From Actinomycetota bacterium (GTDB lineage Bacteria; Actinomycetota; UBA4738; JBBDHU01): 64,000 nucleotides of DNA. The stretch covers positions 422,832 through 486,831 of the forward strand of contig JBBDHU010000006.1 in the NCBI GenBank assembly GCA_040880705.1, read 5' to 3'. Under the pieces are notes generated by a model. That model was given only the letters and a program-made list of their open reading frames with translations, was not told the origin of the DNA and made no database searches. Numbering within the stretch: position 1 is the first letter of the stretch; each line of letters begins with the position of its first letter. The translations under genes were made by a program, and so were the position numbers. Positions 19,701 through 54,912 of this stretch are shown here, one piece after another.

Positions 19701-19709
19701 ATCGCCCTC

Positions 19710-30604: not shown

Positions 30605-31124
30605 TGGTTTCCTCCACGTCCGCGAGCGCCGACATCAGCTCGGCGCGCGCGCGGTGCACGCGGCTCTTCACGGTTCCGACCTTCGTCGACAGAACGACTG
30701 CGGCGTCGGCGTAGGGCAGCCCGAAGACTTCGACCAAGAGAAACGGTTCGCGAAGCTTCGGGACCAGCGATTCGATCGCCAGATCGATCTCCACCCGAGA
30801 CTGGTGATCGGGCACCGGCGCCACCGGAGTGTCGGGCGGCGGCCTCGCGGCTTTCCGTGTGGCGTCCATGGCGCAGTTCCTGGTGATCGCGAAGAGCCAG
30901 GACGAGAACTTCGAATCTCCGCGGAACGAGCCAAGAAACCGGAACGCGCGCAAGAAGGCCTCCTGCGTGATGTCGTCCGCGAGGTGCGGATCGCGGGCCA
31001 GGGAGCAGGCGAATCGCCACACGTCGCCTTGATATGCGCGAACCAGAGTTTCGAACGCGCCGAGGTCCCCCGCCTTCGCCAGGCGGAGCAGTCCCGGATC
31101 GGGTTCCTGCATTCCCTCTCCCAT
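30594..31124 (-). CDS. ECF-type RNA polymerase sigma-70 factor
   Basis: Region 2 (DDITQEAFLRAFRFLGSFRGDSKFSSWLFAITRNCAMD) and region 4 (YADAAVVLSTKVGTVKSRVHRAR) signatures are present, in 176 aa. Confidence 0.85.
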   Translation of the reverse strand: MGEGMQEPDPGLLRLAKAGDLGAFETLVRAYQGDVWRFACSLARDPHLADDITQEAFLRAFRFLGSFRGDSKFSSWLFAITRNCAMDATRKAARPPPDTPVAPVPDHQSRVEIDLAIESLVPKLREPFLLVEVFGLPYADAAVVLSTKVGTVKSRVHRARAELMSALADVEETNEL

Positions 31125-31163
31125 TTGAGGCGGGCGATCTCCAGACTACGCGTCGGTACACAC

Positions 31164-39385: not shown

Positions 39386-40837
39386 ATGCGTGGAACCCCC
39401 TGGTCTAGGCGCCTTTCTCTTGCGGCAGCAGCAGCGCTGGCGGTGAGCTTCGTCGGTCCGGGAGCCCGGGCCGCGCTCGGGGATTGCAGGGGCGAGGTTC
39501 CGACCATCACCGGCACGGCCGGAGACGACTACATCGAGGGAACCGACGGCGATGACGTCATCGTGGGCCTGGAGGGGAACGACGTGATCGACGGCTTCAA
39601 GGGTCACGACGTGATCTGCGGCGATGAGGGAAACGACGGGATCATAGGGGGCGTGGACGCGAAGGACGGCCCCTACGGGAACGACATCATCGACGGGGGT
39701 CCGGGGAACGACGGCCTCTTCGGGGTGCAAGGCAACGACATCCAGTACGGGGGCGACGGCAACGACGTGATGACGAGCGGCAACGGCGACCCCGGCGTGG
39801 ACCGCCTCTTCGGCGAGGCCGGCAACGACTACCTGCTCAATGCCGGGCCGTCGGACGACCTGGTGCTCGGGGGAGACGGAGATGACGTTCTCCACGGCAG
39901 GGGCGGGGACGACAGACTTCGAGGCGAAGCCGGAAACGACATACTCATCGGAGGCACAGGGAACGACCGGTTGGTCGGCGGCGACGGTGACGACCGGCTT
40001 TACGGAGAAGACCACAACGACCGCATGCTCGGAGAGGCCGGCGACGACCTACTCGACGGGGGACGCGATTCGGACAACCTTAGGGGCGGCGGGGGCGCCG
40101 ATATCTGTATGGACCCCGACGGCGGCGGCCATTGTGAGTCGGTCACCCGAAATCGGCCACGGGCCGGCCGCGGTTCGATGTGCGATGGAAAACGCGGCAC
40201 GATTGTGGGGACAGCGAAGAGCGACATCCTGATCGGCACCGGCCAAGGTGACGTCATGATCGGCAAGGCCGGAAACGACGTGATCCTGGGAGGAAACGGA
40301 CGAGACACGATCTGCGGAGAAGCGGGGATCGACAGCATCCTGGCGGGCGGAGGCAAGGACACGATGCTCGGCGGCAGCGGCGCCGACGCCCTGTTCACGG
40401 ACGCCGGGCCGGATGATGCGTTCGGCGGCAACGGCGACGATTTGTTGCGAGGCGTGGGCGGTCACAAGGGTGACCTGACTTTCTTCGGCGAGGAGGGCAA
40501 CGATCTGCTGTTCGGAGGATCCGACTCAGACGAAATGGACGGAGGCAACGGCAACGACGTGTTCTACGGCGGACCCGGTGACGAGACCATGATCGGCGGC
40601 GAAGGTGATGACGTCACATACGGCGACGATCACTTCGACGTCATAGACGGCGGCGGGGGCAACGACCACCTCACCGGGGGGTTCCACGAGGACACGATTT
40701 TCGGAGGAACCGGCGACGACATCCTGGACGGCAACACGGGGAGCGACACCCTCGACGGCGGCGACGACACGGACATCTGCCTGAGCGGTGAGGTCGCCCC
40801 CACGAACTGCGAATCGGTTCCCGTTCCGATCGTTTAG
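39386..40837 (+). CDS. secreted calcium-binding RTX / beta-roll repeat protein
   Basis: Signal peptide (RRLSLAAAAALAVSFVGPGARA), then more than 30 nonapeptide-like GGxGxDxL/I/V repeats spanning almost the whole protein (GTDGDDVIVGLEGNDVIDGFKGHDVICGDEGNDGIIGG ...). Start placed at ATG 39386; the track's start at 39362 is TTG. Confidence 0.7.
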   Translation: MRGTPWSRRLSLAAAAALAVSFVGPGARAALGDCRGEVPTITGTAGDDYIEGTDGDDVIVGLEGNDVIDGFKGHDVICGDEGNDGIIGGVDAKDGPYGNDIIDGGPGNDGLFGVQGNDIQYGGDGNDVMTSGNGDPGVDRLFGEAGNDYLLNAGPSDDLVLGGDGDDVLHGRGGDDRLRGEAGNDILIGGTGNDRLVGGDGDDRLYGEDHNDRMLGEAGDDLLDGGRDSDNLRGGGGADICMDPDGGGHCESVTRNRPRAGRGSMCDGKRGTIVGTAKSDILIGTGQGDVMIGKAGNDVILGGNGRDTICGEAGIDSILAGGGKDTMLGGSGADALFTDAGPDDAFGGNGDDLLRGVGGHKGDLTFFGEEGNDLLFGGSDSDEMDGGNGNDVFYGGPGDETMIGGEGDDVTYGDDHFDVIDGGGGNDHLTGGFHEDTIFGGTGDDILDGNTGSDTLDGGDDTDICLSGEVAPTNCESVPVPIV

Positions 40838-40849
40838 CAGGACGACCTA

Positions 40850-41040
40850 GCCGCCGCTCGCCGACCGGTGGCCGGCCGGCCCCCCTCTCTCCGACAGGTT
40901 CTGCGCGGCATTGACGAGACCCACATGGGTGAAGGCCCGAGGGAAGTCACCCAAGAGGCGCTTCCCTTGCCGGTCCTTCCGACGAGCGCGGCGGAACGCG
41001 CGTCCTCGATGAGTCCCTAGTTCTCGATACGCAATGGCAC
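40850..41040 (-). pseudogene. remnant of the 3' end of a glycoside hydrolase family 15-like (glucoamylase/trehalase-type) gene
   Basis: The minus-strand translation ...KRLLGDFPRAFTHVGLVNAAQNLSERGG* resembles the conserved GH15 C-terminal motif (GNFPQAFSHxGLINAA). The frame breaks about 20 codons upstream. The body of the gene is absent, and the sulfotransferase gene begins at 41116. Confidence 0.3.
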
Positions 41041-41115
41041 GAACGCCGATTCTCTCCTCACGGTCTTACTGAGTCCAGCTCTTTGGCGATACATAGACGC
41101 CGCTAGACTTCCAGC

Positions 41116-42087
41116 GTGACGTCTTCACCGGTCTTCGTTGTTGGGTGTCCTCGATCGGGGACAACACTTGTCCGGCTGATGCTAGACGCGCATCCCGATC
41201 TCGCGATCCCGCCGGAGTCTCACTTCATCCCGCTGGCTTGGCGTGTTCGTCGCCGGTACGAAGGACCGAACGGCTTCAACGCCGAACTTCTTGCAAGGCA
41301 GATCATGCACGGCCATCGGTTCCGCGAATGGGAGCTCCCGGAGGAGGCGGTGTGGCGGCAGCTGGAGACCTTGGAGCGCCCCGATTTCACGTCGGTTATC
41401 GAAGCCTTCTTCGTGGCCTATTCGGAGTTCCAGGGAAAGCCGAAGTGGGGAGACAAGACCCCTAACTATTCCGCGGATATGCCGCTATTAGCGACCCTGT
41501 GGCCCGATGCGCGGTTCGTTCATGTAGTTCGAGACGGTCGGAATGTGTCGGCTTCGCTGCTGGAAATCCCGCGACCCAGAATGAATATCACTGAGGCGGC
41601 GCAGATGTGGTCGGAGAGGGTCAAGAAGGGGGCGCAAGACGGTCTGTCGCTCGGAGACAGGTATCTGGAAATCCGGTACGAGGATCTTCTGGCAGACGCT
41701 TCCCACATACTCGCACTCGTCTGCGACCACGTGGATTTGGATTTCCGACCCGAGATGCTCGAATTCAGTCGCAGCGCGCCGTCGTCAATCCCCACGCGAT
41801 CTTGGGAGGACTATCACCGGAACCTCGCCAAGCCGCTAACGGTAACGAGGGACTGGCGCGCCTCACTGGCGGCCGCTCAAGTCGCCGCCATAGAGGCGGT
41901 CGCGGGTAATGAGCTCACCGAGTTCGGCTATGAGAGGCATTTCGAAATCGTGCCATTTCATGTGCGGGTGAAGGCGCGTCTCACCGTTCTTCTGAACAAG
42001 GTCATGCACCTGGGATGGAAAATCCGCATTACGATCACGACGCGCTTCCACCCGAATTTCATACCGCCGCCCCGGCGCTGGCTATAA
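41116..42087 (+). CDS. sulfotransferase family protein (PAPS-dependent, Stf-like), paralog 1
   Basis: GTG start. 5'-PSB loop VFVVGCPRSGTTLVRLML and 3'-PB motif VRDGRNVSASL are present. The protein is collinear with the ORFs at 49604 and 53915 (LDxHPDLAIPPES, GDKTP). Confidence 0.75.
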   Translation: MTSSPVFVVGCPRSGTTLVRLMLDAHPDLAIPPESHFIPLAWRVRRRYEGPNGFNAELLARQIMHGHRFREWELPEEAVWRQLETLERPDFTSVIEAFFVAYSEFQGKPKWGDKTPNYSADMPLLATLWPDARFVHVVRDGRNVSASLLEIPRPRMNITEAAQMWSERVKKGAQDGLSLGDRYLEIRYEDLLADASHILALVCDHVDLDFRPEMLEFSRSAPSSIPTRSWEDYHRNLAKPLTVTRDWRASLAAAQVAAIEAVAGNELTEFGYERHFEIVPFHVRVKARLTVLLNKVMHLGWKIRITITTRFHPNFIPPPRRWL

Positions 42088-42108
42088 CGGAACTCCAATC
42101 GAATTATG

Positions 42109-42192
42109 TGCCCGGGGAGGGATTCGAACCCTCACGCCCCGAAGGGCAGGCGCTTTTAAGGCGCCGTCGTCTACCGTTTCCGACACCCGGGC
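42109..42192 (-). tRNA. tRNA-Leu (anticodon TAA)
   Basis: The minus strand reads GCCCGGGTGTCGGAAACGGTAGACGACGGCGCCTTAAAAGCGCCTGCCCTTCGGGGCGTGAGGGTTCGAATCCCTCCCCGGGCA. It has a 7-bp acceptor stem, an anticodon loop CUUAAAA, a long variable arm and T-loop GGTTCGAATCC, and is 84 nt. No CCA is encoded. Confidence 0.85.
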
Positions 42193-42215
42193 CTGGCGGG
42201 TGCTTCGAATAGATC

Positions 42216-43196
42216 CTAGGCCCGCTGAGCCCATGGGCCCGCTCGCTCCGCGAACCATTCAACGGTCATTCGTAGGCCCTCCTCAAAGGAGAACTTGGGC
42301 CGGTACCCCAGAACTTCCTCAGCCTTGCTGATATCGGCCTGGCTCGTTCGTATCTCGCCGACCCTCGGCGGTTCTCGCTGCGGTTCTAAGTGGTCTCCGG
42401 GAACCAGTCCCTGGATCGTTTGAAGCAAGTCGTTGACGGAGTGACGGCCGTTGTACGCCACGTTGATGACTTTCCCTAAGGCTTTCTCCCCGGCCTCCGC
42501 GGCCAGGAGGTTTGCAGCGACCACGTCGCCGACGAAAGTGAAATCGCGGGCTTGCTCGCCATCCCCGTATATAGTCGCGGGCTCGTCATCCATCGTCGCG
42601 GAAATGAAACGGGGAACGACAGCCGCGTACTCTGCCGTCGGGTTCTGATTCGGGCCGAACACATTGAAGTATCGAAGCGAAACGGTGGCCAGCCCGAAAG
42701 AGTGATGGAAAGCGGAGGCATAGGCTTCCCCGGCAAGCTTGGAGACGCCATAGGGAGACAGTGGATGTGTGGGAAGGTCCTCGGACACTGGCATTCGTTC
42801 GGCGTTTCCGTAAACCGAGGAGGAAGACGCAAATACGACACGCTCGACGTGCTCGTCACGAGCCGCCATGAGTACGTTCAGCGTGCCGGTGACATTAGCC
42901 ATATGTGTCGCACGAGGATCTTTGACCGACCGGGCAACGGAAGGAATCGCAGCTTGATGAAACGCAGCCTTGACGTCGCGCATGGCCTCTAGAACCGTCG
43001 CGGCATCTCGAACGTCCCCGTTCATGAACTGAACCTGCTCCGACGAGAACTGCGCCAGATTCTCCGTCCTTCCAGTAGACAGGTCATCCAGCACACGGAC
43101 ACGATCGCCTCGTTCCACCAATGCTTGGACGAGGTTCGAACCGATGAAGCCCGCCCCTCCGGTGACGAGGTGTAGACCGCGCGAACCTACGACCAA
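42216..43196 (-). CDS. NAD-dependent epimerase/dehydratase (UDP-sugar 4-epimerase-like, short-chain dehydrogenase/reductase)
   Basis: N-terminal Rossmann motif VTGGAGFIGSNLV, a catalytic YxxxK (PYGVSKLAGE) and a 326-aa length. Confidence 0.85.
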   Translation of the reverse strand: MVVGSRGLHLVTGGAGFIGSNLVQALVERGDRVRVLDDLSTGRTENLAQFSSEQVQFMNGDVRDAATVLEAMRDVKAAFHQAAIPSVARSVKDPRATHMANVTGTLNVLMAARDEHVERVVFASSSSVYGNAERMPVSEDLPTHPLSPYGVSKLAGEAYASAFHHSFGLATVSLRYFNVFGPNQNPTAEYAAVVPRFISATMDDEPATIYGDGEQARDFTFVGDVVAANLLAAEAGEKALGKVINVAYNGRHSVNDLLQTIQGLVPGDHLEPQREPPRVGEIRTSQADISKAEEVLGYRPKFSFEEGLRMTVEWFAERAGPWAQRA

Positions 43197-43211
43197 GACG
43201 GGGCCAATCTC

Positions 43212-45128
43212 CTAGTCTTCGTCCGCCGGAACTTCAAGGAGATCCGCGAGCGTTTCATCCGTAACGGCGCCCGGAGCTGGATGGTAAGTGGAAACAGTCT
43301 CCTGAAGAAGGGCCCGGATCCTTGCGGGATTCCCTTCCGCCGCGGCTTCCGAAAGCAGCGTCAGGTTGCGCTCCAGTGAGTCGGGGTCGGGCTCAGCGCC
43401 GATCCCTGCGACGAAAATCTTCTCTTCAACCGTCGCAACGGTGCCGGCCTCCGCCAGGACAATCTCTTCCTTCATTTTCTCTCCCGGTCGAGCACCAGTG
43501 AACTGGATGGGCACGTCGACGTCCGGCTCGAGCCCCGAGAGGCGGATCAGCGCCTCCGCCAGATCGACGACACGAACCGGGTCTCCCATGTCGAGGGTGA
43601 AGACCTCTCCCCCCCGGCCTAGGGAGGCGGCCCTCAGAATAAGCCTGGCGGCCTCCGTCACGGTCATGACGAATCTCTCCATCGAGGGGTCCGTCACCGT
43701 TATGGGTCCCCCCCGCCGGATCTGTTCCTCCAGAATCGGGAGTAGGCTGCCCCGGCTGCCCAGGACGTTTCCAAATCTGACGGCGACGAACCTTGTGGCG
43801 CTCGACTCGTCAAACCTGTGAACGATCATTTCGGCAACCCTCTTCGACGCTCCCATGACCGAAGTGGGATTCACTGCCTTATCCGTCGAGATGAGAACGA
43901 AGCTCTCGCTCCCCGACTCCGCCGCCGCTTCCGCCATCGCCGCGGTTCCAAGGATGTTGGCGGAGACGGCTTCTTGCGGGTGCGACTCCATCATCGGCAC
44001 ATGTTTATAGGCCGCCGCGTGGAAGACGAGCTGCGGGCGAAAGGTGCCGAAGACCTGCCGCAATCTATCCCGATTCCTGACGTCGCCTACAACTGGAAAC
44101 ACGGGAACGCGGGGTGCGGTGCGCCTCAGGTCGAGTTCGAGACCGAAGAGTCTGGTCTCGTCCTTTTCGAAGAGGACCATCCGGCCCGGCTCGAACTGTG
44201 AGATCTGTCTCGAGAGCTCTGCGCCGACAGAGCCGGCCGCTCCGGTAATAAGGACGGTGGTTCCATACAGATACGATCCAACGGGTCCCATGTCGATGTT
44301 CACGGGTTCCCGCATGAGGAGGTCCTCCACGTTCACCTCCCGGACGGACGAGAGAGTTATGCGACCCTCCAACATCGCCTCGACGCTCGGGAGGATTCGG
44401 ATTCCCTGAACCCCTGCCGTGCGAGCGGCAACGACGACCTCGCGAATAACCGCTCCGGATGCCGACGGCATCGCCACGATCACTTCGTTTACCTTCTCCT
44501 CCGCGATGATCCGCGGCATCTGATCCCGGCCCCCGCGAATGTGGACGCCATGCAGATAGTTCCCGAACTTGACAGGATCGTCGTCGATCACGCCCACGAC
44601 CTTGTAACCACGCCGCGAGTACAGGAGCTCACGGACGAGCTGCTCGCCGGAATGCCCGCCGCCGACCAGGAGCACGCGGACGGAGTCCTCGTTGTGGTCT
44701 CGGGAGGTCAGAACCTGATGGATCCTCCGGCCCATGCGCACTCCGCCCACACCGATCAGCGTGAGGAGGAAGTCGATCGGCAAGATCGAGCGCGGAAGCG
44801 ACGGGAGGCCGAAGTTGCCACCTAACAGATAGGCAAGGGTTCCCCAGGCCAGCGTTCCAACGATGGTTGCCAGTCCCACATTGATCATGTCCCGCGCGCC
44901 GACGTAGCGCCAAGTCAGTCGATAAAGGCGGAACGCGGCGTTCGCGATGAACTTCGGGCCTATCGCAATCAGAAGAAAGGCTGCGATCGCTCCCCAATAC
45001 TTGGGAGGAATGTCCCCATCGAATCGAATGACGAAGGCTCCGTACATAGAGGCGGTGAAGACCAGGTAGTCGCAAGCAAGGAAAAAGAGCACGCGTTTTC
45101 TGTTCGTCGGGTTGAGAAGCTGACTCAT
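43212..45128 (-). CDS. membrane-bound polysaccharide biosynthesis protein CapD/PglF/WbpM family (UDP-N-acetylglucosamine 4,6-dehydratase)
   Basis: 4 N-terminal TM helices, a linker Rossmann region (VLLVGGGHSGEQL) and a catalytic SDR domain (VLITGAAGSVGAEL...AYKHV). Start placed at ATG 45128 (MSQLLNP), which overlaps the upstream stop in an ATGA. Confidence 0.85.
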   Translation of the reverse strand: MSQLLNPTNRKRVLFFLACDYLVFTASMYGAFVIRFDGDIPPKYWGAIAAFLLIAIGPKFIANAAFRLYRLTWRYVGARDMINVGLATIVGTLAWGTLAYLLGGNFGLPSLPRSILPIDFLLTLIGVGGVRMGRRIHQVLTSRDHNEDSVRVLLVGGGHSGEQLVRELLYSRRGYKVVGVIDDDPVKFGNYLHGVHIRGGRDQMPRIIAEEKVNEVIVAMPSASGAVIREVVVAARTAGVQGIRILPSVEAMLEGRITLSSVREVNVEDLLMREPVNIDMGPVGSYLYGTTVLITGAAGSVGAELSRQISQFEPGRMVLFEKDETRLFGLELDLRRTAPRVPVFPVVGDVRNRDRLRQVFGTFRPQLVFHAAAYKHVPMMESHPQEAVSANILGTAAMAEAAAESGSESFVLISTDKAVNPTSVMGASKRVAEMIVHRFDESSATRFVAVRFGNVLGSRGSLLPILEEQIRRGGPITVTDPSMERFVMTVTEAARLILRAASLGRGGEVFTLDMGDPVRVVDLAEALIRLSGLEPDVDVPIQFTGARPGEKMKEEIVLAEAGTVATVEEKIFVAGIGAEPDPDSLERNLTLLSEAAAEGNPARIRALLQETVSTYHPAPGAVTDETLADLLEVPADED

Positions 45129-46318
45129 GCGGCCGCCTCGCCCAATCCCGACCGCAGCGCGTCGCACACCCTGGCGACCTCGGTCCTCGACAGGCCCCCG
45201 TATAGAGGAACGATGACATTGCGCGCCGCGGCGTCGTCCGTGACGGGGAGAGGGCCAGGCGCGAGGTGTGGTCTGACCGCGTACGGGGGCTGGCGATGCA
45301 CGGGTGGATCGAAGTAGGCTTTCGACTCGATTCCCTTCGCGTTGAGATGCAGAACGACTTTGTCGCGGTCGACTTCCTTCGACACCAGGAGGAACTCAAC
45401 AAACCACGACGGCTTTGCCCATGAAGCCGCGCGTGGGGTGGAGACGCCCTCGACTCCGGCCAGTTCTTCCTGATACCACGACACGACCCGGCTCCGCCGT
45501 TCGAGGATCTCATCTACCCGGCGCATCTGCGCGACGCCCAGGGCCGCGGACAACTCGTCGAGCCTGTAGTTGTAGCCGATTCTCGTGTGATGCAGCCAGG
45601 GGTCACCCGAGCGACGGCCCTGATTGCGCAAGCTTCTGATTCGCTCCTCGATGTCTGGATCAGTCCCGGTTGCCATTCCTCCTTCACCGGTCGTGATCTG
45701 CTTGTTCGGATAAAAACCGTACACGGTGATCTTTGCACCGGTCCCCGCATGAACCCACGCATCGGACCTTTGAAATTGCGAGCCCAGCGCCTCGCAGGAG
45801 TCGCTCACTACTGGGATCGAAGCGGGAGCCGCGATTTCAATGATCTCGTCGAGCTTCGCCGGATGCCCGAAGATGTCGACGGGCATGACTGCGGCAACTC
45901 GACGTCCCGTATTGGGATCGTGGAGGCCGTCCTCAGCCTCCTTACAGCTGTCGAGATATTGACGAAGCGCCGATGGCGAGAGACAAAGCGAATCGGGATC
46001 CACGTCGAGAAAGACAGGCTCGGCTCCTTCATAGGACAGCGCATTGGCCGCAGCGATGAAGGAAAGGGAGGAGGTGACCGCACAATCCTCGGGTCCGATG
46101 GACAAGGCTCTCACGGCAATGTGGAGAGCCGCGGTGCCACTCGAAACGGCGGCCGCCCAGGGACTCCCCACGAAACCTGCGAAAAGCCGCTCGAACTCGC
46201 CCGTCTTTGGACCCAACGCCAGCCGGCCACCGCGCAACGCGCCGAGCACCTCCTCCTCCTCGGCCGTTCCGAGGTCGGGCCTGGCAAGCGGTATCGGAGG
46301 ATCATTGTCGTTTTTCAT
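45125..46318 (-). CDS. DegT/DnrJ/EryC1/StrS-family aminotransferase (sugar 4-aminotransferase, PglE/WbpE-like)
   Basis: Region FAGFVGSPWAAAVSSGTAALHIA..., a PLP-lysine region (YPNKQITTGEGGMATGTD) and an NYRLDELSAALG motif. Length is 397 aa. Confidence 0.85.
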   Translation of the reverse strand: MKNDNDPPIPLARPDLGTAEEEEVLGALRGGRLALGPKTGEFERLFAGFVGSPWAAAVSSGTAALHIAVRALSIGPEDCAVTSSLSFIAAANALSYEGAEPVFLDVDPDSLCLSPSALRQYLDSCKEAEDGLHDPNTGRRVAAVMPVDIFGHPAKLDEIIEIAAPASIPVVSDSCEALGSQFQRSDAWVHAGTGAKITVYGFYPNKQITTGEGGMATGTDPDIEERIRSLRNQGRRSGDPWLHHTRIGYNYRLDELSAALGVAQMRRVDEILERRSRVVSWYQEELAGVEGVSTPRAASWAKPSWFVEFLLVSKEVDRDKVVLHLNAKGIESKAYFDPPVHRQPPYAVRPHLAPGPLPVTDDAAARNVIVPLYGGLSRTEVARVCDALRSGLGEAAA

Positions 46319-46401
46319 CGGCGCCCCGAAATGGTGTCGTGAGACTGCAGGATAGCCGGTCGAGCGTGCTGAATCTCTCTGTTCCCCCGGTTCGGCATTG
46401 C

Positions 46402-47538: not shown

Positions 47539-47587
47539 GGGAATCTATCACGCATAATTCGAGCCTCCTGCGTCGTAAGGTAGGCGT

Positions 47588-48787
47588 ATGACGGCAGAAG
47601 CGCCCCGTGTAGCCGACGTCGTTCCATCTCTCAAGCTCCGCGGCGCCGAGGTTTTCGTCCAACAGCTCGAGAGCGTTCTCCGTGACAAATACAACTTTCG
47701 TCTGTTCACGCTCTACAACGAAGGCAATCCGCTTCCGGTTGGTGGGCGGCACCTGGACATCAGCCGCGGTGTCTCACAGGGGCCGGGTCGCAGGCTGCGA
47801 GCCGCCCTTGACCTCCGTCGCCGGGTGACCGCATTCGGTCCCCGCGTCATCCATGTACGAGGAGGCGATCCATTGCGCCTGTGTGTCCTCGCAGGCCTTC
47901 ACCGGATAGCCCCACTCGTTTATGTACGAATTTCGGAGGTGCCATCGAACCTACGGACACCACTCAGAACGCTGTCCATCCGCGCGGCCTACGCGCGGGT
48001 GTCCGTCTTTGTAGCCGTCAGTGAATCACTTCGGCGAGAGATGGTCGAGGTGTTCGGGATACCGCCCGAGCGCATAGAGGTCATCCCGACGGGGAGGCTC
48101 GGTCCCCCCTTGCCGTCGTCCGAGGAGACCTCAACAATCCGAGACGAGGTCGGCGCGAGGCCGGGCGGTCCGCTCGTTTCCTGGGTTGGTCGCCTGTCCG
48201 CAGAAAAGAACCCCGAAGCCGCACTGGCCGTTGCTCGTCATCTGGAGAAGCTCGCCCCAGAGGCGACACTGGTTGTCGTCGGGGATGGGCCGCTCGAGCA
48301 AACCATCCGAGCCCGGGCGGGCAGCAACGTTACGTTTGCAGGGGCCCGCCCCGATGCCGCCCGGATCATCGCCGCATCGGACATCTTGCTTTCAACGAGT
48401 GCCCACGAGGGTCTGCCGGGCGTCGTCGTCGAGGCGTTACTCTCCGGAGTTCCGGTAGTGGCCAATGATGTCGGCGGGATCGGCGAAGCGATCACGGATG
48501 GCGAGACCGGCCTTCTCGTGCCCGCGAGCAGCCGCGAGGCCTTGGCGCGGGCCGTGGTACGAATCGCGCATGATCCCGCCCTCCGGGCTCGCATGGCCGA
48601 AAAGGCGAGGCGTTCCGCCCAACGATTTGAGATGGGCACGGTCTCCGAGGAATACGACCTTCTGTATCGCAAGCTTGGCGTCCTCGCTAGCGGCGAGGAC
48701 CAACGCTTAACGCATACTCGGAGGCCTCCGCCACGGACGGACGCAACGAGCGAGCCAGATGCCAAAGATTCGCAGCCTCCGGCCTGA
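47588..48787 (+). CDS. glycosyltransferase family 4 (with a Pro/Thr/Asp-rich C-terminal tail)
   Basis: GT4 C-terminal motif (LSTSAHEGLPGVVVEALLSGVPVVANDVGGIGE). The tail RPPPRTDATSEPDAKDSQPPA overlaps the convergent GT2 gene. Confidence 0.75.
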   Translation: MTAEAPRVADVVPSLKLRGAEVFVQQLESVLRDKYNFRLFTLYNEGNPLPVGGRHLDISRGVSQGPGRRLRAALDLRRRVTAFGPRVIHVRGGDPLRLCVLAGLHRIAPLVYVRISEVPSNLRTPLRTLSIRAAYARVSVFVAVSESLRREMVEVFGIPPERIEVIPTGRLGPPLPSSEETSTIRDEVGARPGGPLVSWVGRLSAEKNPEAALAVARHLEKLAPEATLVVVGDGPLEQTIRARAGSNVTFAGARPDAARIIAASDILLSTSAHEGLPGVVVEALLSGVPVVANDVGGIGEAITDGETGLLVPASSREALARAVVRIAHDPALRARMAEKARRSAQRFEMGTVSEEYDLLYRKLGVLASGEDQRLTHTRRPPPRTDATSEPDAKDSQPPA

Positions 48788-49532
48788 TCCTGAGAGACCG
48801 CAGCAGCGCCGATCGAGCAAGCCTTTGATCACCGAGTCGGTTGGCCATGAGACCAACCCTTTTCCAAAGAAAGGCAGTCGCCCGCGGATGCGCGGTGAAG
48901 TAGCCCGAGTATTCGTCCAGGAGCATCAACCTGCACCTGATGCGCGAGCGAAGATCCGTGTACTTTCGGGGACCACTCGCCCCCCGGAACATGTAACCGA
49001 CCTGTGGAACGGTTGCCACGCGGTGTTCCCGCGCGAGTCGGAGCCACCACTCGATATCCTCCGCCGCGGCGTATCTTGGATCGAACTTCGGCGCGATCCT
49101 CGCTTCGAGCGCCGTCCGGCCGACGTGCGGGGCCATTCCGTCAAGGATCGTGTCGTAAACGTTGCCTTCCAGGATCCTTCCTCGCCGGGGGTTGGCCCAG
49201 CAAACGGCAATGGGAGCGCGTTCGAGTCCCTCCAGGGCGATCTCCAATCGCCTCTCAGTGAACACGTCGTCGTCGTCGAGAAACGCGAGGAAGCGGCCTC
49301 TCGCGCCATCGAGGCCCGTGTTTCGCGCGGCCGACGGCCCGCCGTTGTTCTCTCTTCGGACTAGCTTGAGACGCGGGTCATCCGGGACGTTCACCGGTTC
49401 GGGGCTCGCATCATCGACGACTATGCACTCGAAATCCTGAATGCTCTGATTGAGTAGCGATTCAATCGCGGTGCGAAGATACACAGGACGTCCGTGAGTC
49501 GGAATGATTATGCTGAATAGCGGCGTCGCCAC
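48687..49532 (-). CDS. glycosyltransferase family 2
   Basis: N-terminus FSIIIPTHGRPVYLRTAIESLLNQS and the VVDDASPEP / DDDD motifs are GT2 (GT-A, DxD) signatures. Confidence 0.75.
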   Translation of the reverse strand: MATPLFSIIIPTHGRPVYLRTAIESLLNQSIQDFECIVVDDASPEPVNVPDDPRLKLVRRENNGGPSAARNTGLDGARGRFLAFLDDDDVFTERRLEIALEGLERAPIAVCWANPRRGRILEGNVYDTILDGMAPHVGRTALEARIAPKFDPRYAAAEDIEWWLRLAREHRVATVPQVGYMFRGASGPRKYTDLRSRIRCRLMLLDEYSGYFTAHPRATAFLWKRVGLMANRLGDQRLARSALLRSLRIRPEAANLWHLARSLRPSVAEASEYALSVGPRR

Positions 49533-49603
49533 GAGGCCATGATAGTGGGAAACGTGCTCTCACGATCTTCTCTCACGGCCAGGCCCTTTGCTAGTTTGTT
49601 GGC

Positions 49604-50593
49604 GTGCCGGATCTTGCGCCTTTCCCGTTCATAGTCGGTGCCGAGCGATCGGGTACGACTCTTCTTAGGGTGATGCTCGATCAGCATCCCGACCTGGCCA
49701 TCCCACCGGAGTCCTACTTTCCCGTCTCCATGCGTCCACGACGGGTAGCAGGGGATAAAGACCCCTTCGACGGGGAACGGTTTACGAACAACCTGCTGGT
49801 TCATCCATGGTTTCAAAAATGGAAGCTCGACGCGTCCGCCGTGCTTTCGGCAATGGAAAGGCCGGGTCACATCGACTACCCGGAGGCGATTCGCCGCGTT
49901 TATGGAGCCTATGCCGAATCTCGAGGGAAGCGAGACTATGGCGACAAAACACCCTCCTTTGTGCTTCACATCGACTTGTTATCAGCCATGTTCCCCGAGA
50001 GCCTCTTCGTGCACATCATTAGGGACGGGAGGGATGTCGTCGCCTCCATCCTGGAACGCCGGTGGGGATCCGGACACCTGACGACAGGCGCGGCGACGTG
50101 GGCCGGGCGGGTTGATCGCGGCCGAGCCTGCGGATTGAAACTCGGCGCCGACCGGTACAGGGAAGTCATGTACGAAAGCCTTGTGTCGGAACCCCGTCGG
50201 ATTCTCGAGGAGATTTGCGATTTCCTTGGCATTGCGATGGTCCCGGAGATGTTGAACTACTACGAACACTTTGACGAGCTCGTACCTCAAGCCGAACGCG
50301 AACAGTTTCGCCACCTGTCGCGCCCGCCAACGGCCGGATTACGCGATTGGCGGCGCGACATGCGTCCTTCCGATGTCGCGACCATCGAGGCCGTCGCCGG
50401 CCGGACTCTTTCTGAACTCGGCTACGAGAGAGCATTTTCGGATCCTCCGACCGGTGCTCGTATCCGCGCGGCAGCCGGCGCTCAGCTCATGCGCGCACGT
50501 CGCACCAAGCGCAGGATCAAGAAGGTGCTTCGGCGTGCGATCCCACAGCGAAAACGAGGGAACGCGAGCAAGCGGATCACGAGGGAAGCCTAG
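49604..50593 (+). CDS. sulfotransferase family protein (PAPS-dependent, Stf-like), paralog 2
   Basis: FPFIVGAERSGTTLLRVMLDQHPDLAIPPESYF (5'-PSB) and IIRDGRDVVASI (3'-PB) are present, with a basic C-terminal tail. Confidence 0.75.
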   Translation: MPDLAPFPFIVGAERSGTTLLRVMLDQHPDLAIPPESYFPVSMRPRRVAGDKDPFDGERFTNNLLVHPWFQKWKLDASAVLSAMERPGHIDYPEAIRRVYGAYAESRGKRDYGDKTPSFVLHIDLLSAMFPESLFVHIIRDGRDVVASILERRWGSGHLTTGAATWAGRVDRGRACGLKLGADRYREVMYESLVSEPRRILEEICDFLGIAMVPEMLNYYEHFDELVPQAEREQFRHLSRPPTAGLRDWRRDMRPSDVATIEAVAGRTLSELGYERAFSDPPTGARIRAAAGAQLMRARRTKRRIKKVLRRAIPQRKRGNASKRITREA

Positions 50594-51384
50594 GGAGCCG
50601 GAGTCTCGCTCCCCTGGACCTCTCTTCTGTAGAGATCAATGACCTCGTCCGTCGGTCCATCCGCCCTTACGACGGCACGGTCGAGGTAAACGACTCGAGA
50701 ACACACCCTCTTCACGTCGGCCAGCATGTGGGATACGAATACGAGGGTTTGTCCCCGAGCGCGCATTTCGTCCAATCGCCGCAAACATCTCTGCTGGAAA
50801 GACTCATCGCCAACGGCCAGTACTTCGTCAACAAGAAGCACGTCCGGGTCGAGGTGGACTGCCACAGAGAACCCCAGTCGGACCTCCATGCCGGACGAAT
50901 AACGCTTGACCGGCGTGTCGATGAACCGGCCCAGTTCGGCGAACTCGACGATCTCCTCGAAGCGGCGGCGGATCTCCTTGCGAGAGAGTCCTAGGATCGT
51001 GCCGTACAGGAAAAGGTTCTCTCTGCCCGTCAGCTCGGGGTGAATCCCGCTTCGGATCTCGATCAGTGAACCTATCCGGCCTCGTGTTTTGACGGTTCCG
51101 GACCAGGGCTCGGTTATGCGTGACATCAGCTTAAGCGTCGTCGACTTCCCGCTGCCGTTCGGACCGATGATCCCAACTGCCTCTCCGTCCCGAACATCGA
51201 AGGAAGCGTCCGCAAGCGCCCAAATCTTCGTGCTAGGCACATTCGAGGAGCGACGGAGCCCCGCACGCTCAAGCGCAGTCGAGAACTCTCCGGCCAAGGT
51301 GCGACTCTTCCTGCGCCGATTTCCCAAGCGGTAACGCTTCCACACCCTGTCAAAGTGGATGATCACATCTCCTTCAGATGACAT
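50590..51384 (-). CDS. wzt: ABC transporter ATP-binding protein of a polysaccharide exporter (Wzt/TagH/KpsT-like)
   Basis: Walker A GIIGPNGSGKSTTLK, ABC signature YSSGMEVRLGF and Walker B VLLVDEVLAVGD. Start placed at ATG 51384 (MSSEGDVIIHFDRV). The track's longer N-terminus is Pro/Gly-rich and overlaps wzm. Confidence 0.8.
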   Translation of the reverse strand: MSSEGDVIIHFDRVWKRYRLGNRRRKSRTLAGEFSTALERAGLRRSSNVPSTKIWALADASFDVRDGEAVGIIGPNGSGKSTTLKLMSRITEPWSGTVKTRGRIGSLIEIRSGIHPELTGRENLFLYGTILGLSRKEIRRRFEEIVEFAELGRFIDTPVKRYSSGMEVRLGFSVAVHLDPDVLLVDEVLAVGDESFQQRCLRRLDEMRARGQTLVFVSHMLADVKRVCSRVVYLDRAVVRADGPTDEVIDLYRREVQGSETPAP

Positions 51385-52423
51385 CGGCGAAGGTCCTGTC
51401 GATCCGCTTGTACCACCAGTAAGCCAGCCCGAGCCCGACAGTGGACACGGCCGCGGCCGAACCAAGTGGTCCCCACAAGGGCCATTCCCCGTGGGCAAGG
51501 ATGCGCCTGAAACCGTCCATGATCGGCGCGAGGGGATTCAGATAGACATACGCGTCCGCCAGAGAGCCGTGCAGCACCCCTTCAGGTCCGATCATCTTCG
51601 CCAGGGGGTATGCAACCGGGGTCGCAAAGAGCGCAATCTGGAGGAGCAGCGGTATCCCGTATCGCGTGTCTCGGAAGTAGACCGTTACCGCAGAGAACAC
51701 GAGCGTCACGGCGAGCGAAAACATCGTCAGGATCAGGAGGATGAGCGGATAGGCTATCCATTCGACCTGGGGCGAGAAGCCGTAGGCAATGAGCATGCCG
51801 AACAAAATCACCGTAGAAACGCCGAAATCGACTCCCGAGGAAAGAACGGACGACGCCGGAAAAATCTCCCGCGGCATGTAGATCTTTCTAATGATTGGGG
51901 CATTCGTGATGATGCTGCTGGTCCCCGTCGTGACCGCGCTGGAGAACAATGACCAGGGGACGAGCGCCGTGTAGGAAAAAATGGGATATGGGAGACCCTC
52001 GCTCCCGACTTGGGCGATCCTTCCGAACACCACCGAGAAGATCACCATTAATGTCAGTGGTTGAAGTACAGCCCATACCGCCCCGAGCGCCGCTTGCTTG
52101 TATCTGACCCTAAGGTCCCTCTCCACGAACGTGAGGACGATCTCCCACCGATGAACCAGCTCGGCCAACGCCGCGCGAAGAGAAAGCGGGTAGCGCGTCC
52201 TCGGGGGCGGTTCCAGATCCAGGTCCTCGGTTACACGCGGCCTTACGCGCGGAATCGCCCTGTGGAGACGCTCGGCTTCTTCGAATTCTTCTTGGGTTGC
52301 CGCCTCGAAGAAACCGTCACTCCCCTTGGCCGCGCGCTTCACCATCGGTGATTGCAAATGGAGGTCAGACTCGTCGGCTTCCCCGGTTTCGGGAACGGGG
52401 GGCTCACGTTCCTCGGGCTTCAC
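51374..52423 (-). CDS. wzm: ABC-2 type polysaccharide export permease (Wzm/TagG-like)
   Basis: 6 TM helices and the ABC-2 motif region (LVHRWEIVLTFVERDLRVRYKQAALGAVWAVLQP). The true start may lie 25-30 codons inside (MVKRAAKG...). The acidic N-terminal stretch is uncertain. Confidence 0.75.
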   Translation of the reverse strand: MKPEEREPPVPETGEADESDLHLQSPMVKRAAKGSDGFFEAATQEEFEEAERLHRAIPRVRPRVTEDLDLEPPPRTRYPLSLRAALAELVHRWEIVLTFVERDLRVRYKQAALGAVWAVLQPLTLMVIFSVVFGRIAQVGSEGLPYPIFSYTALVPWSLFSSAVTTGTSSIITNAPIIRKIYMPREIFPASSVLSSGVDFGVSTVILFGMLIAYGFSPQVEWIAYPLILLILTMFSLAVTLVFSAVTVYFRDTRYGIPLLLQIALFATPVAYPLAKMIGPEGVLHGSLADAYVYLNPLAPIMDGFRRILAHGEWPLWGPLGSAAAVSTVGLGLAYWWYKRIDRTFADVI

Positions 52424-52470
52424 GGACGCATTCTACAGAAGGCTACGTGGCGGCCGTATGCTGTCTGGCG

Positions 52471-53277
52471 ATGTCGAGGGTAGTAGCCGTCATCGTCACC
52501 TACAAACGCCCGGAGTTGCTAAGACGCTGCGTCGAGGCGGCATTGCGGCAAACCCGCCGGCCAGATCTCGTTCTGATTGTGGACAACGACCGGATGGCTC
52601 GGCAGGCACTTGATGATTACTTGCCGAACGGCAAGGCACGTCTGGAAGTCATCGAGACAGGCAGTAACTTGGGGCCCGCCGGTGGCTACGAGATCGGCTT
52701 CCGCCTCGCCCTGGAACGAGGGGCGGACAAAATATGGACCCTGGACGACGACGACGAGCCAATGCCCGATTGTCTCGAGAAGTTGCTCGCCGCCGGCGGG
52801 GCCATAGTCACCCCCCTCGAAATTAGGCCCTCCGGATGGGAGGGATTTGCCGGCTCATGGAACGGTGGCCTCATTGACTCGGAGGTGGTCCGCCGTGTCG
52901 GTCCTCCCCGCCGCGAGCTGTTCTTCTGGGCGGAGGACACCGAGTTCTTCCTCCGGGCTAAGCTGGCCGGTTTCCTGCGCCAACGCGAACCGGCGGCAAT
53001 CGTCAAGCACGCCCAGCCCGACGCCCGCCGGCCTGGGGTTGCCAGGAATTGGCGGCTCTACTACGAGATCCGCAACACGCTCTACGTACGCCTCAAGGTC
53101 AGGGACGCCTCACCGAGGCAGGCGTATCGAGCCTCCCTCTCGGTCCTGGGGAAGCCCCTTCGCATCCTGCTGTTCGAGCCTGGGAAACGCGACTCCATGC
53201 GGCTGTGGTGGTGGGGAGTCAGGGACTTTCTTCGGGGACGATTGGGGAAGGTCGTGGACCCCGAGGATCACCGGTAA
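52471..53277 (+). CDS. glycosyltransferase family 2 (GT-A fold)
   Basis: Start placed at ATG 52471 (MSRVVAVIVTYKRPELLRRCVEAAL). The DxD motif is WTLDDDDEP and a GlfT/rhamnosyltransferase-like organisation follows. The track ORF extends 58 codons upstream. Confidence 0.7.
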   Translation: MSRVVAVIVTYKRPELLRRCVEAALRQTRRPDLVLIVDNDRMARQALDDYLPNGKARLEVIETGSNLGPAGGYEIGFRLALERGADKIWTLDDDDEPMPDCLEKLLAAGGAIVTPLEIRPSGWEGFAGSWNGGLIDSEVVRRVGPPRRELFFWAEDTEFFLRAKLAGFLRQREPAAIVKHAQPDARRPGVARNWRLYYEIRNTLYVRLKVRDASPRQAYRASLSVLGKPLRILLFEPGKRDSMRLWWWGVRDFLRGRLGKVVDPEDHR

Positions 53278-53353
53278 TCCCTCGGATGCGTGCTCGATGG
53301 GTTGATGTCCGCGGAAATCCGAGGCATAATCTGGCGGTCCGACGAGAAGGGGG

Positions 53354-53824
53354 ATGCACATGAGGCAACGCGCTGCTCTGGTTGTCGTAGCAGTCGCACT
53401 CTTCGCAATGGCGGCCTACGCACAACCGGCGTTGGCTGCCGTTATCGTTTGTGGAGGTGGGGACTGCATCGGGACATCTAGTCCCGACGACATCACCGGC
53501 ACAGACGGATACGACCGAATTGAAGGCCGCGCTGGGGGCGACACGATTAGTGCCCTCAACAGCTCGGACAAGGTCTTTGGCCAGCTGGGAGCCGACTGGA
53601 TGCACGGTGACGGCGGTCACGACAGGATGAGGGGTGGCGGCTCCGACGACACGATCTGGGGCGACGCCCAACACGACCGTGTCTGGGGCGGTCCAAACGA
53701 CGACACGTTGAACATGCAGGACGACAATTCGGACCCGGTAGTCAACGGAGGTAACGGGTACGACGTCTGCAACGTGGACGCAATCGACACGTGGAGCAAC
53801 TGCGAGGTCGTTAACGTCGCTTAG
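53354..53824 (+). CDS. small secreted calcium-binding repeat protein (RTX-like), paralogous in its N-terminal motif to the 39386 protein
   Basis: Signal peptide AALVVVAVALFAMAAYAQPALAA, then CGGGDCIGTSSPDDITGTDGYDRIEGRAGGDTI..GDGGHDRMRGGGSDDTIWGDAQHDRVWGGPNDD, which are GGxGxD repeats. The Cys-containing start C..GDC.G...ITGT.G.D.IEG is shared with the 39386 protein. Confidence 0.6.
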   Translation: MHMRQRAALVVVAVALFAMAAYAQPALAAVIVCGGGDCIGTSSPDDITGTDGYDRIEGRAGGDTISALNSSDKVFGQLGADWMHGDGGHDRMRGGGSDDTIWGDAQHDRVWGGPNDDTLNMQDDNSDPVVNGGNGYDVCNVDAIDTWSNCEVVNVA

Positions 53825-53830
53825 CTGAGG

Positions 53831-53882
53831 CTGCAAAAGCAAACGAAGCGGGGACGAGAGTCCCCGCTTCTTGCTTTTGCAG
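53831..53882 (+). terminator. long near-perfect hairpin (about 23-bp stem with a 2-nt bulge, 6-nt loop) immediately after the small RTX gene
   Basis: ctgcaaaagcaaacgaagcgggga cgagag tccccgcttcttgcttttgcag, read directly from the sequence. No T-tract follows on either strand, consistent with the U-tract-less terminators common in high-GC Actinobacteria. Confidence 0.45.
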
Positions 53883-53914
53883 GGTGACGAAGGTGGCCCG
53901 GATATACTCGCTCG

Positions 53915-54907: not shown

Positions 54908-54912
54908 AGGCG

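Follow-up and report, generated by a model that had tools for sequence, protein, structure and literature searches.

Two signal-peptide-bearing RTX-like beta-roll proteins with cysteine-capped modules beside sulfotransferase genes in an Actinomycetota MAG

Introduction

[quoted passage not shown] Beta-roll modules are also tied to anionic polysaccharide biology in the AlgE mannuronan C5-epimerases, rhizobial NodO and PlyA/B, which are type I secreted and carry a catalytic A-module or a glycanase part, or are pore-forming. Two further sets of proteins bear comparison: metagenomic "Ca2+-binding RTX toxin-like proteins" of about 260 aa (P0002, P0123-P0170), and proteins of Solirubrobacteraceae and related MAGs that join a propeller-like region to a double beta-roll (P0116, P0086, P0068 and others). 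RTX genes in Actinobacteria genomes without type I secretion components were noted, as a surprise, in a 2010 review of RTX proteins (PMC3034196).

Here we examine two genes, A and B, that lie in a 64-kb window (the whole stretch of DNA analysed) of an Actinomycetota MAG. With the RTX/PF00353 proteins (CyaA RTX blocks, serralysins, family I.3 lipases) their products share GGxGxDxUx nonapeptides and a predicted parallel beta-roll; they differ from the classical members in having N-terminal signal peptides and a Cys-closed end loop, in having no HlyB/HlyD-type genes nearby and no toxin, protease or lipase domain, and in their host. From AlgE, NodO and PlyA/B they are set apart by the signal peptides and by the lack of a second domain. 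The reading that we favour, and consider reasonably probable, is that A and B are exported, non-enzymatic beta-roll proteins, predicted to bind calcium, of a signal-peptide-bearing RTX-like class.

Architecture and predicted fold

Gene A lies at 39386..40837 (+), with a GC3 of 0.80 that is typical for coding sequence; a TTG at 39362 is an alternative start. The open reading frame is where the initial annotation had it, and the product is 483 rather than 485 aa long. It had been described as almost entirely repeats behind a signal peptide: both are present, and the repeats fall not into a single run but into two tandem beta-roll modules, at about residues 30-255 and 266-483, as judged from the ORF, PF00353 and the AF2 model. 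The signal peptide, as read in the sequence, covers residues 1-29 (MRGTPWSRRLSLAAAAALAVSFVGPGARA; 39386..39472, +) with a predicted cut after ARA. Module 1 (residues 30-255; 39473..40150, +), delimited from sequence, alignment and AF2, contains Cys34 and, 44 residues on, Cys78, runs through about 22 nonapeptide turns and ends in the C-cap GGGGADIC241-x8-C250ESV. The linker RNRPRAGRGS (residues 256-265; 40151..40180, +), which is inside a low-confidence AF2 stretch (pLDDT below 50 at residues 246-269), leads into module 2 (residues 266-483; 40181..40834, +), which is delimited in the same way, repeats the 44-residue spacing with Cys266 and Cys310, and closes with DIC465-x9-C475ESVPVPIV. The two modules align with 43% identity and carry their Cys at equivalent positions (34/78/241/250 and 266/310/465/475).

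Gene B (WD757_07685) encodes a single-module beta-roll protein that is an exact match to P0001. Its ORF at 53354-53824 (+) has a GC3 of 0.73, again typical for coding sequence, and stands as first annotated; the start and the length of 156 aa probably do not. Because the ribosome-binding site AAGGGGGA shares bases with the ATG at 53354 and the NCBI annotation has a 154-aa product, we place the start at the ATG at 53360, which is probably the true one and gives a gene of 53360..53824 (+) that is consistent with ORF, PF00353, AF2 and RBS. In the numbering from 53354, the signal peptide extends to residue 28, and is followed by an N-cap C33-x4-C38 and, at the far end, a C-cap C139-x10-C150EVV.

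Ahead of B, a promoter-like site, TTGATG and CATAAT with a 17-nt spacer (53302..53330, +), is seen as a pattern match only, in a consensus scan that returns one such site where 0.2 are expected. Directly after the stop codon, folding and a terminator scan locate a long hairpin, rich in G+C and with many U on its 3' side (53832..53881, +); the scan marks its 11-bp core stem (53845-53870) as terminator-like. For the 93-nt intergenic region the folding energy is -52.2 kcal/mol (z=-7.3), which 0/200 shuffles match, and the hairpin is likely an intrinsic terminator. Since a promoter-like site and a strong terminator hairpin flank the gene, B looks like a self-contained transcription unit.

That the two proteins carry the same type of repeat, as first proposed, is borne out by the HemolysinCabind profile PF00353. 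At a Pfam gathering threshold of 23 bits, A scores 212 bits (E=5e-64, 12 stretches) and B 52 bits (E=4.8e-14, 3 stretches), both far above the cut-off. Other domains are found in neither protein by Pfam or NCBIfam, and the one NCBIfam match of another kind, to EglC, covers the repeats only and reaches 41 bits against a cut-off of 700. The AlphaFold modelling that had been suggested returns a pure beta-roll in both proteins, with regular 3-residue strands at 9-residue intervals, and agrees with the profile searches that there is no catalytic domain. In the model of B (pLDDT 92.7), residues 29-155 consist entirely of short strands and residues 3-22 form a lone helix before the roll. In that of A (pLDDT 81), short-strand blocks at 40-245 and 270-478 form two rolls with a disordered linker between them; the pLDDT is below 50 for residues 1-30, and confidence is low at the N-terminal Cys of both modules.

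The best structural matches of A and B are CyaA RTX blocks, family I.3 lipases, serralysins and AlgE R-modules, those of AlgE4 and AlgE6 among them. For A, Foldseek gives the CyaA RTX domain as the best match (E=1e-10), and RTX block V superposes locally with an rmsd of 1.4 A over 88 columns at 36% identity; for B, the top matches are likewise RTX beta-rolls, with weak E-values. We have high confidence in the right-handed parallel beta-roll predicted by these models. Two more specific identities were considered and set aside. An AlgE-type epimerase or a rhizobial Ply glycanase would have a catalytic module fused to the roll, and Pfam, NCBIfam and the roll-only models reveal none; an RTX-type S-layer protein such as RsaA does not agree with the small mature sizes (454 aa for A, 128 aa for B) or with the lack of a non-repeat anchoring domain, and RsaA itself is only a weak structural match to A (E=0.05, probability 0.23).

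The mature proteins carry a net charge of -74 (A) and -18 (B), with a pI of about 4. Together with the conserved Asp at repeat position 6, this extreme acidity fits many putative Ca2+ sites in both.

Cysteine caps and relatives

All the cysteines, 4+4 in A and 4 in B, are at module ends, and all three modules finish with a common motif, GG.G.D[IV]C-x(8-10)-CE[SV]V. The terminal C and E of CExV are invariant in 34 B-family proteins. Among 120 generic RTX matches only 9 have the C...CExV cap, and all 9 of these have a hydrophobic, signal-peptide-like N-terminus, as against 27/120 overall; the cap recurs in signal-peptide-bearing RTX proteins of other organisms, and the literature searched contained no earlier description of it.

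The N-termini are a different matter. The initial annotation had seen a shared Cys-containing N-terminal module in A and B and had taken it to suggest paralogy. A has one N-terminal Cys per module where B has a CxxxxC pair, and their alignment needs an indel. Because the I.GT.G.D.I.G part is present in the consensus of 30 RTX proteins picked only for their coverage of A, we judge the pattern to be, as far as sequence comparison goes, mostly the generic first RTX repeat of a block. Paralogy is not specifically supported either: B shares 37% identity with A module 1 and an unrelated metagenome protein (P0002) shares 41%, and BLASTP of A against B aligns the repeats only. By this measure metagenomic proteins are at least as close to A as B is.

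The N-terminus of B is near-identical to that of the P0002 family, and not to that of A. B shares with this family a signal peptide ending ALA/A (the slash marking the cut), the N-cap xIxCxGGxCxGTxxPDDITGT, the repeats and the terminal NCExV, and has all four of these family features, whereas A is without the CxxxxC N-cap. It is 43% identical to P0002, with 70 invariant columns that include both caps, and matches the family profile at E=1e-67. There are differences: B is about 100 residues shorter and is without the family's C-terminal Q/E-rich tail, the first Cys of its C-cap is shifted (DVC139 in B, DCG in the family), and no examined family member sits in a glycan locus. A resembles the proteins of the P0116/P0086/P0068 type, which have a signal-peptide-like N-terminus and two rolls closed by C...CExV. 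These proteins, however, have an N-terminal region of about 300 residues, beta-propeller-like by sequence, that is absent from A; their caps take the longer form CGxGxD-x(12-17)-CExV, and their neighbourhoods are unrelated to that of A.

Proposed export, folding and capping

The signal peptides claimed for both proteins can be read in the sequences as n/h/c-type N-termini ending in AxA (GPGARA/ALGDC in A, AQPALA/AVIVC in B). At the other end, the chains stop 3-9 residues past the Cys cap. Type I secretion genes (HlyB/HlyD-type, TolC-type) were found nowhere within the 64-kb window, the only ABC system in the locus being an ABC-2 permease with a separate ATPase; the operon upstream is that of a Tad/Flp pilus. 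With a signal peptide at each N-terminus and type I secretion genes absent from the surroundings, A and B are, by their sequences, signal-peptide-bearing RTX-like proteins and not classical type I RTX proteins. An SRRLSL stretch in the signal peptide of A bears a loose resemblance to the twin-arginine motif, and with SRR in the n-region Tat export of A is loosely conceivable.

The favoured reading can be laid out as a path from export to the finished protein. The very acidic chain would pass unfolded through Sec, the signal peptide suggesting the route, and signal peptidase would cut after AxA. By analogy with RTX biophysics, the GGxGxD repeats would be disordered at low intracellular free Ca2+, and external Ca2+ would then drive the folding of the beta-roll outside the cell, as in RTX proteins. 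The four Cys of each module, placed at both ends, would probably form two disulfides, stapling the N-terminal strand and closing the short C-terminal loop (C-x8-10-CExV); we infer these disulfide caps because the Cys counts are even, their spacing is conserved and the cap co-occurs with signal peptides. Type I substrates need a capping segment at the C-terminus, and such a Cys-closed loop would stand in for it. The product of B would be a single roll of 128 residues, that of A two rolls joined by a flexible linker. They have neither an active site nor an anchoring motif, and most likely serve the envelope as structural or Ca2+-binding proteins, in soluble form or loosely attached to the wall. 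Two hypothetical proteins would in this way become signal-peptide-bearing, probably disulfide-capped, beta-roll proteins with predicted Ca2+ binding, otherwise fairly ordinary. The combination of a signal peptide with Cys pairs at module ends, here and in many metagenomic relatives, may be how a beta-roll is capped and stabilised in bacteria that have no type I secretion.

Genomic setting and functional readings

The surroundings are as first described, with three PF13469 sulfotransferases, GT2 and GT4 glycosyltransferases, sugar-nucleotide enzymes and an ABC-2 exporter. Gene A stands at the edge of the locus, and the sulfotransferase ST1 (41116..42087, +; E=4.5e-35) follows it 278 bp downstream on the same strand, with no terminator-like structure found between the two (fold z=-0.19). 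Gene B lies between a GT2 gene and ST3 (53915..54907, +; E=7.9e-42) on the same strand, ST3 being directly downstream past the hairpin. The sulfotransferase ST2 (49604..50593; PF13469) has no beta-roll partner gene. Among about 17 genes, from A through a UDP-sugar dehydrogenase gene, there are two beta-roll genes, each immediately upstream of a sulfotransferase gene, and this is more than we would expect by chance.

It is position, then, that suggests a link to the sulfated glycan, and the initial annotation had proposed a role in binding it. In its wider form, the proposal is that A and/or B are Ca-dependent partners of the locus's anionic sulfated glycan, through binding, Ca2+-bridge cross-linking or S-layer-like anchoring, and are functional parts of the locus; we regard this as unlikely. 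The placement of B between GT2 and sulfotransferase, the unbroken stretch from A to ST1 and the order of both gene pairs argue for it. So do the AlgE R-modules, which bind an anionic polysaccharide, and the consideration that Ca2+-loaded rolls would be about neutral, with Arg and Trp exposed on several repeats, at positions 7 and 9. However, the apo-proteins are extremely acidic, aromatics at repeat position 9 are also present in relatives aligned with B, B has putative signals of its own on both flanks, and in papers that describe two sulfated-EPS clusters there is no mention of an RTX or Ca-binding protein. The linkage is also not conserved. A sulfotransferase was found in 0/18 homolog contexts (15 B-family and 3 double-cap A-like), the sampled homologs being repeat proteins only 30-45% identical whose orthology is not established, and a beta-roll ORF in 0/4 loci of the closest relatives of the neighbouring sulfotransferase. 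The co-occurrence search thus leaves the binder role without comparative support, the sampled relatives occurring apart from glycan loci, and among these contexts the placement of A and B beside a sulfotransferase cluster is specific to this genome. Because of these homologs the tie is weakened here, though it does not fall away; that it is functionally real seems to us rather improbable.

The same gene order raises another question, whether the sulfotransferases act on the beta-roll proteins themselves. In the RaxX-RaxST system of Xanthomonas, the substrate and sulfotransferase genes are adjacent, and here the order beta-roll then sulfotransferase occurs twice (A-ST1, B-ST3). Among solved structures, the relatives closest to ST3 are protein-tyrosine sulfotransferases (E about 1e-13 to 4e-14), and the 7 Tyr of A and 2 Tyr of B are all in Asp-rich contexts, so that Tyr in the acidic repeats could be sulfated before export by TPST-like enzymes. 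We give this very little credence. The TPST likeness is at the level of the PF13469 family, a polyketide-synthase sulfotransferase domain (4gox) scoring about equally at E=9e-14 (the CurM ST is weaker, 5e-08), and the carbohydrate sulfotransferase NoeE is matched as well, if weakly and far below its NCBIfam cut-off. Moreover, the locus encodes a complete set for assembling and exporting a glycan, and this set calls for sulfotransferases; ST2 is unpaired, a strong terminator separates B from ST3, and the homolog contexts have no sulfotransferase.

A bolder proposal, which we hold to be distinctly unlikely, is that A and B work outside the cell as dedicated partners of an anionic wall or capsule polymer of this uncultured actinobacterium, one that is sulfated, contains uronic acid and is free of phosphate. 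Their Ca2+-loaded rolls would dock on or cross-link its chains in a protein-polysaccharide-calcium matrix, or, in a radical variant, A and B would themselves be tyrosine-sulfated by the TPST-like enzymes encoded immediately downstream of each. If true, either version would pair beta-roll proteins and bacterial sulfotransferases functionally in a new way. With any real glycan link, the sulfated polysaccharide systems of bacteria would gain a protein component; for actinomycetes such systems are a very recent proposal (PMC13390465).

The other side of gene A suggests a connection of a different kind. Divergent from A, and only about 59 bp apart, is a secreted PF04185 phosphoesterase of the phospholipase C / acid phosphatase family (37899..39332, -; E=6e-71), whose NCBIfam PC_PLC and acid_phos_Burk matches are below their cut-offs, and the next three upstream genes all have signal-peptide-like N-termini. 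A could accordingly belong to a nutrient-scavenging, possibly phosphate-starvation, secretome with the adjoining hydrolases (the phosphoesterase, a coiled-coil protein, a sulfatase), for example by storing extracellular Ca2+ for phosphatases that depend on it. We consider this highly unlikely, since it accounts for A and not for B, no PHO box or regulator is identified, and the pattern appears in only 2/18 contexts. In one of these two, genes for a 5'-nucleotidase and a phosphodiesterase lie within 10 kb of the B-family homolog P0179; in the other, P0180 lies between a histidine kinase and a response regulator, adjoining PhoU and phosphate-transport genes (a PstS-like binding protein, two permeases and an ABC ATPase).

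The two beta-roll genes

We begin by considering the two open reading frames that had been taken for secreted beta-roll proteins. A (39386-40837, + strand) encodes 483 residues, not the 485 initially assigned to it, and B (53354-53824, + strand) encodes 156 residues when translated from its first ATG. In the NCBI annotation (WD757_07685), B starts at the second ATG, at position 53360, and has 154 residues. Because the first ATG is overlapped by a AAGGGGGA ribosome-binding site, 53360 is more likely to be the true start; residue numbers of B are nevertheless counted here from 53354. Third-position GC content is 0.80 in A and 0.73 in B, as high as in real genes of the same genome, and together with the strong Pfam scores of both products it rules out spurious reading frames and bears out the observation of two beta-roll genes. 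The exact sequence of A, from either start, has no match in the protein collection. The window itself matches contig JBBDTV010000014.1 of GCA_040904185.1, a metagenome-derived assembly assigned to an Actinomycetota bacterium.

Both proteins exceed the Pfam cut-off of 23 bits for the HemolysinCabind repeat (PF00353), A with 12 stretches (E=5e-64, 212 bits) and B with 3 (E=4.8e-14, 52 bits). The NCBIfam matches of the two (RTX toxins, serralysins and similar families) are all below threshold and confined to the repeats. No domain besides the repeats is detected in either protein by Pfam or NCBIfam, in keeping with the initial annotation, which saw no obvious catalytic domain in them.

The AlphaFold2 model of B, built on an alignment of 34 sequences, has a mean pLDDT of 92.7 and places a signal-peptide helix (residues 3-22) before a succession of short strands, one each nine residues (29-155). 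In the model of A (pLDDT 81), two blocks of strands (40-245 and 270-478) are linked by a low-confidence segment (246-269), and the confidence is also poor at the N-terminal cysteine of both modules. When the models are compared with the PDB using Foldseek, solved RTX rolls are the top matches for A and B, and family I.3 lipases, serralysins and the R-modules of AlgE are matched as well. A matches the RTX blocks of CyaA with E=1e-10, and block V of CyaA fits it locally with an rmsd of 1.4 Å and 36% identity. Profile scores, models and structural matches agree; therefore the repeats do score as HemolysinCabind, and the beta-roll domain call is correct for both proteins.

Module architecture, export and folding

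A consists of two tandem modules with 43% identity between them, and each module has four cysteines at equivalent positions. The N-terminal cysteine (34 in module 1, 266 in module 2) is followed, at a spacing of exactly 44 residues, by a second one in a repeat strand (78 and 310), and the C-terminal pair lies within the motif GG.G.DIC-x8/9-CESV (241/250 and 465/475). B is a single module, with C33-x4-C38 at its N-terminus and DVC139-x10-C150EVV at its C-terminus. It had been proposed that A and B share a Cys-containing N-terminal module. This proposal fails as written and is overstated, because the cysteine layouts differ, the N-termini need an indel to align, and the I.GT.G.D.I.G segment, also seen in a consensus built from 30 RTX proteins (selected only for their coverage of A), is simply what the first repeat of an RTX block normally looks like. 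Judged from the sequences, what all three modules truly have in common is a cap at the C-terminus that is closed by cysteines and ends in CExV.

The N-termini of A and B read as signal peptides with AxA sites, no HlyB/HlyD-like genes are found in the 64 kb, and the transporter of the locus is an ABC-2 permease with its ATPase. A and B as classical RTX toxins or as substrates of type I secretion are thus rejected on two counts, the N-terminal signal peptide and the absence of type I secretion genes from the 64 kb. An AlgE/Ply-type enzyme is rejected as neither protein has a catalytic module, and a sortase-anchored adhesin as the sortase motif (LPXTG) and a C-terminal membrane segment are missing from both sequences.

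Following the established biophysics of RTX proteins, the chains would stay unfolded at cytoplasmic Ca2+ and fold outside the cell upon Ca2+ binding. The placement of the cysteines suggests that disulfides would staple both ends of every module, and that the C-terminal Cys loop would cap the roll, replacing the C-terminal flanking segment of type I substrates. The net charges of the mature proteins (-74 for A and -18 for B, with a pI of about 4) fit about one Ca2+ per repeat, which would bring them near neutral.

Relatives of A and B

The nearest relatives of B form a coherent group of metagenomic proteins of about 260 residues (P0002 and P0123-P0170), which have in common with B a near-identical signal peptide and N-cap (AAVIxCxGGxCxGTxxPDDITGT) and the terminal NCExV. 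The best of the relatives, B itself apart, has 43% identity, and no close ortholog is present among 5.8 billion clustered proteins. When the modules of A are aligned with B and P0002, B reaches 37% identity to module 1 of A and P0002 reaches 41%, and BLASTP of A against B aligns the repeats alone. A and B thus belong to the same broad class; nothing here marks them as mutual paralogs in particular, and the suggested paralogy is overstated.

The search with full-length A gives 7751 matches, all of them generic RTX proteins with varied extra domains, and so has no bearing on orthology. Among the best 120 of these matches, the C…CExV motif occurs in 9, usually twice per protein. All nine have a signal-peptide-like hydrophobic N-terminus, versus 27 of the 120 overall; thus the cap goes with signal-peptide-bearing beta-roll proteins. 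One double-cap relative of A, from a Solirubrobacteraceae MAG (P0116), has an N-terminal region of about 300 residues before its two capped rolls. Searching with profiles of the three C-terminal cap segments returns 153,910 representatives at E<=1e-3, mostly giant RTX proteins that match in the repeat part only, so this number does not reflect the spread of the cap.

We conclude that A and B are RTX-like beta-roll proteins of a signal-peptide-bearing, Cys-capped variety common in Actinomycetota and soil metagenomes. As its chief useful by-product, this analysis clearly describes the C…CExV cap and its tie to signal peptides. A review of RTX proteins from 2010 called it a surprise that six Actinobacteria genomes had RTX genes yet no type I secretion components (PMC3034196).

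The metagenome scan for relatives of B used an alignment of 6 sequences. Two B-family genes stand in tandem on one contig (L004, 10001-11716), and three members (P0141, P0143 and P0179) come from separate long contigs of one metagenome (ERZ25039504); certain organisms or communities thus have multiple copies of the family.

The glycan locus and the gene neighbourhood

We turn our attention to the genes around A and B. The glycan locus with sulfotransferases exists as initially described. Its three PF13469 sulfotransferases, ST1 (41116-42087), ST2 (49604-50593) and ST3 (53915-54907), have mutual identities of 37-42%, and they are accompanied by two GT4 and two GT2 glycosyltransferases, a PglF-like dehydratase, a DegT aminotransferase, an epimerase, a UDP-sugar dehydrogenase and an ABC-2 exporter. 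B falls within the locus. A sits at the border, and ST1 is encoded on the same strand 278 bp downstream. A beta-roll gene is thus found twice directly 5' of a same-strand sulfotransferase (A-ST1, 39386-42087, and B-ST3, 53354-54907); ST2 is not paired in this way.

From this position a function as calcium-dependent binders of the sulfated glycan had been suggested, but the tie is positional alone and is not conserved. The beta-roll/sulfotransferase pairing recurs in 0 of 18 homolog contexts, and neither sulfotransferases nor glycan-export genes neighbour any of six B-family homologs located on long contigs. In nine more loci (60.7 kb) that the metagenome scan supplied, nothing but the beta-roll ORF is related to any of 20 proteins encoded at 35.2-58.5 kb of the window, a stretch made up of the locus and its flanking genes. 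Three double-cap A-like proteins stand in unrelated neighbourhoods, one of them adjoining ExoD and a GH65. Conversely, no beta-roll ORF is detected (phmmer, E<=1) in the fetched flanks of the closest ST3 relatives (35-50% identity, four genomes), and no RTX or Ca-binding protein is mentioned in the published descriptions of the synechan and Actinoplanes wps-1 clusters. Glycan-locus linkage is thus absent from every sampled relative, these being repeat proteins at 30-45% identity whose orthology to A or B is unproven, and the comparison gives no support to a functional glycan link. An Arg/Trp "ladder", considered as a sign of glycan binding, is not distinctive, as aligned relatives also have aromatics at repeat position 9.

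Alternatively, A may be part of the group of secreted hydrolases on its other side, where a PF04185 phosphoesterase (divergent, at about 59 bp), a coiled-coil secreted protein and an SGSH-type sulfatase are encoded. A B-family protein of 240 residues (P0180, L010 8001-8723) is encoded with a histidine kinase on one side and a response regulator on the other, adjoining PhoU and phosphate-transport genes (a PstS-like binding protein, two permeases and an ABC ATPase), which hints that some members of the family are phosphate-regulated, and another B homolog lies near 5'-nucleotidase and phosphodiesterase genes. Such contexts make up only 2 of the 18, so this reading is only a hint.

The stretch 41116-56319 of this Actinomycetota MAG is a complete ABC-transporter-type glycan locus, whose genes include those of the three PF13469 sulfotransferases and of the UDP-sugar dehydrogenase. 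According to a 2026 paper (PMC13390465), sulfated polysaccharides were proposed for actinomycetes only very recently, there via a Wzx/Wzy cluster, and the ABC-type sulfotransferase locus may outrank the beta-roll genes in interest. A secreted sulfatase (35253-36635, - strand; PF00884 with PF16347, the N-sulphoglucosamine sulphohydrolase C-terminal domain) is encoded 4.5 kb from the first sulfotransferase and could serve in trimming the sulfated glycan or in recycling it.

Transcription around B and A

A promoter-like sequence, TTGATG-17-CATAAT, is located about 30 nt upstream of B, and a long GC-rich hairpin (53832-53881) directly 3' of it. The 93-nt intergenic region after B folds at -52.2 kcal/mol (z=-7.3); the exact-seed search for inverted repeats (9-nt seed) overlooked the hairpin, which RNA folding reveals clearly. 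Its A-rich 5' side and U-rich 3' tail suggest a bidirectional intrinsic terminator, though the neighbouring genes are all on the + strand. With this promoter-like site and the hairpin that follows, B looks like a unit of its own, probably well expressed, set between a GT2 gene and ST3. No comparable hairpin follows A, and an Rfam search of the whole window gives no match.

The probable terminator between B and ST3 also speaks against a further reading, to which we assign a low probability, namely that A and B are protein substrates of the sulfotransferases. In Xanthomonas, raxX precedes raxST, and the order of beta-roll gene and sulfotransferase resembles this arrangement. The nearest solved relatives of the sulfotransferases are protein-tyrosine sulfotransferases, but this likeness is at the family level only, and the sulfotransferase domain of a polyketide synthase (4gox) scores about equally; the NCBIfam match to the carbohydrate sulfotransferase NoeE is weak and far below threshold. 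Moreover, the locus is obviously in need of glycan sulfotransferases.

Other features of the window

Upstream, a Tad/Flp pilus operon (15561-23102, - strand) encodes TadE/G-like proteins, RcpC/CpaB, a ParA-like ATPase, a T2SSE ATPase and two T2SSF proteins, one of which (16489-18381) has an N-terminal von Willebrand A domain fused to it. Two ORFs of 640 and 591 residues, without a Pfam match, lie on either side of an ECF-type sigma gene (30594-31124) at 28682-32939 (- strand); the 640-residue ORF overlaps the end of the sigma gene and may encode its anti-sigma factor or a regulon partner. The PF04185 phosphoesterase beside A (37899-39332, - strand) carries two RR pairs (including HGRRIG) in its long N-terminal region. 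Phospholipase C of this family is Tat-exported in other bacteria, and the RR pairs suggest Tat export here as well.
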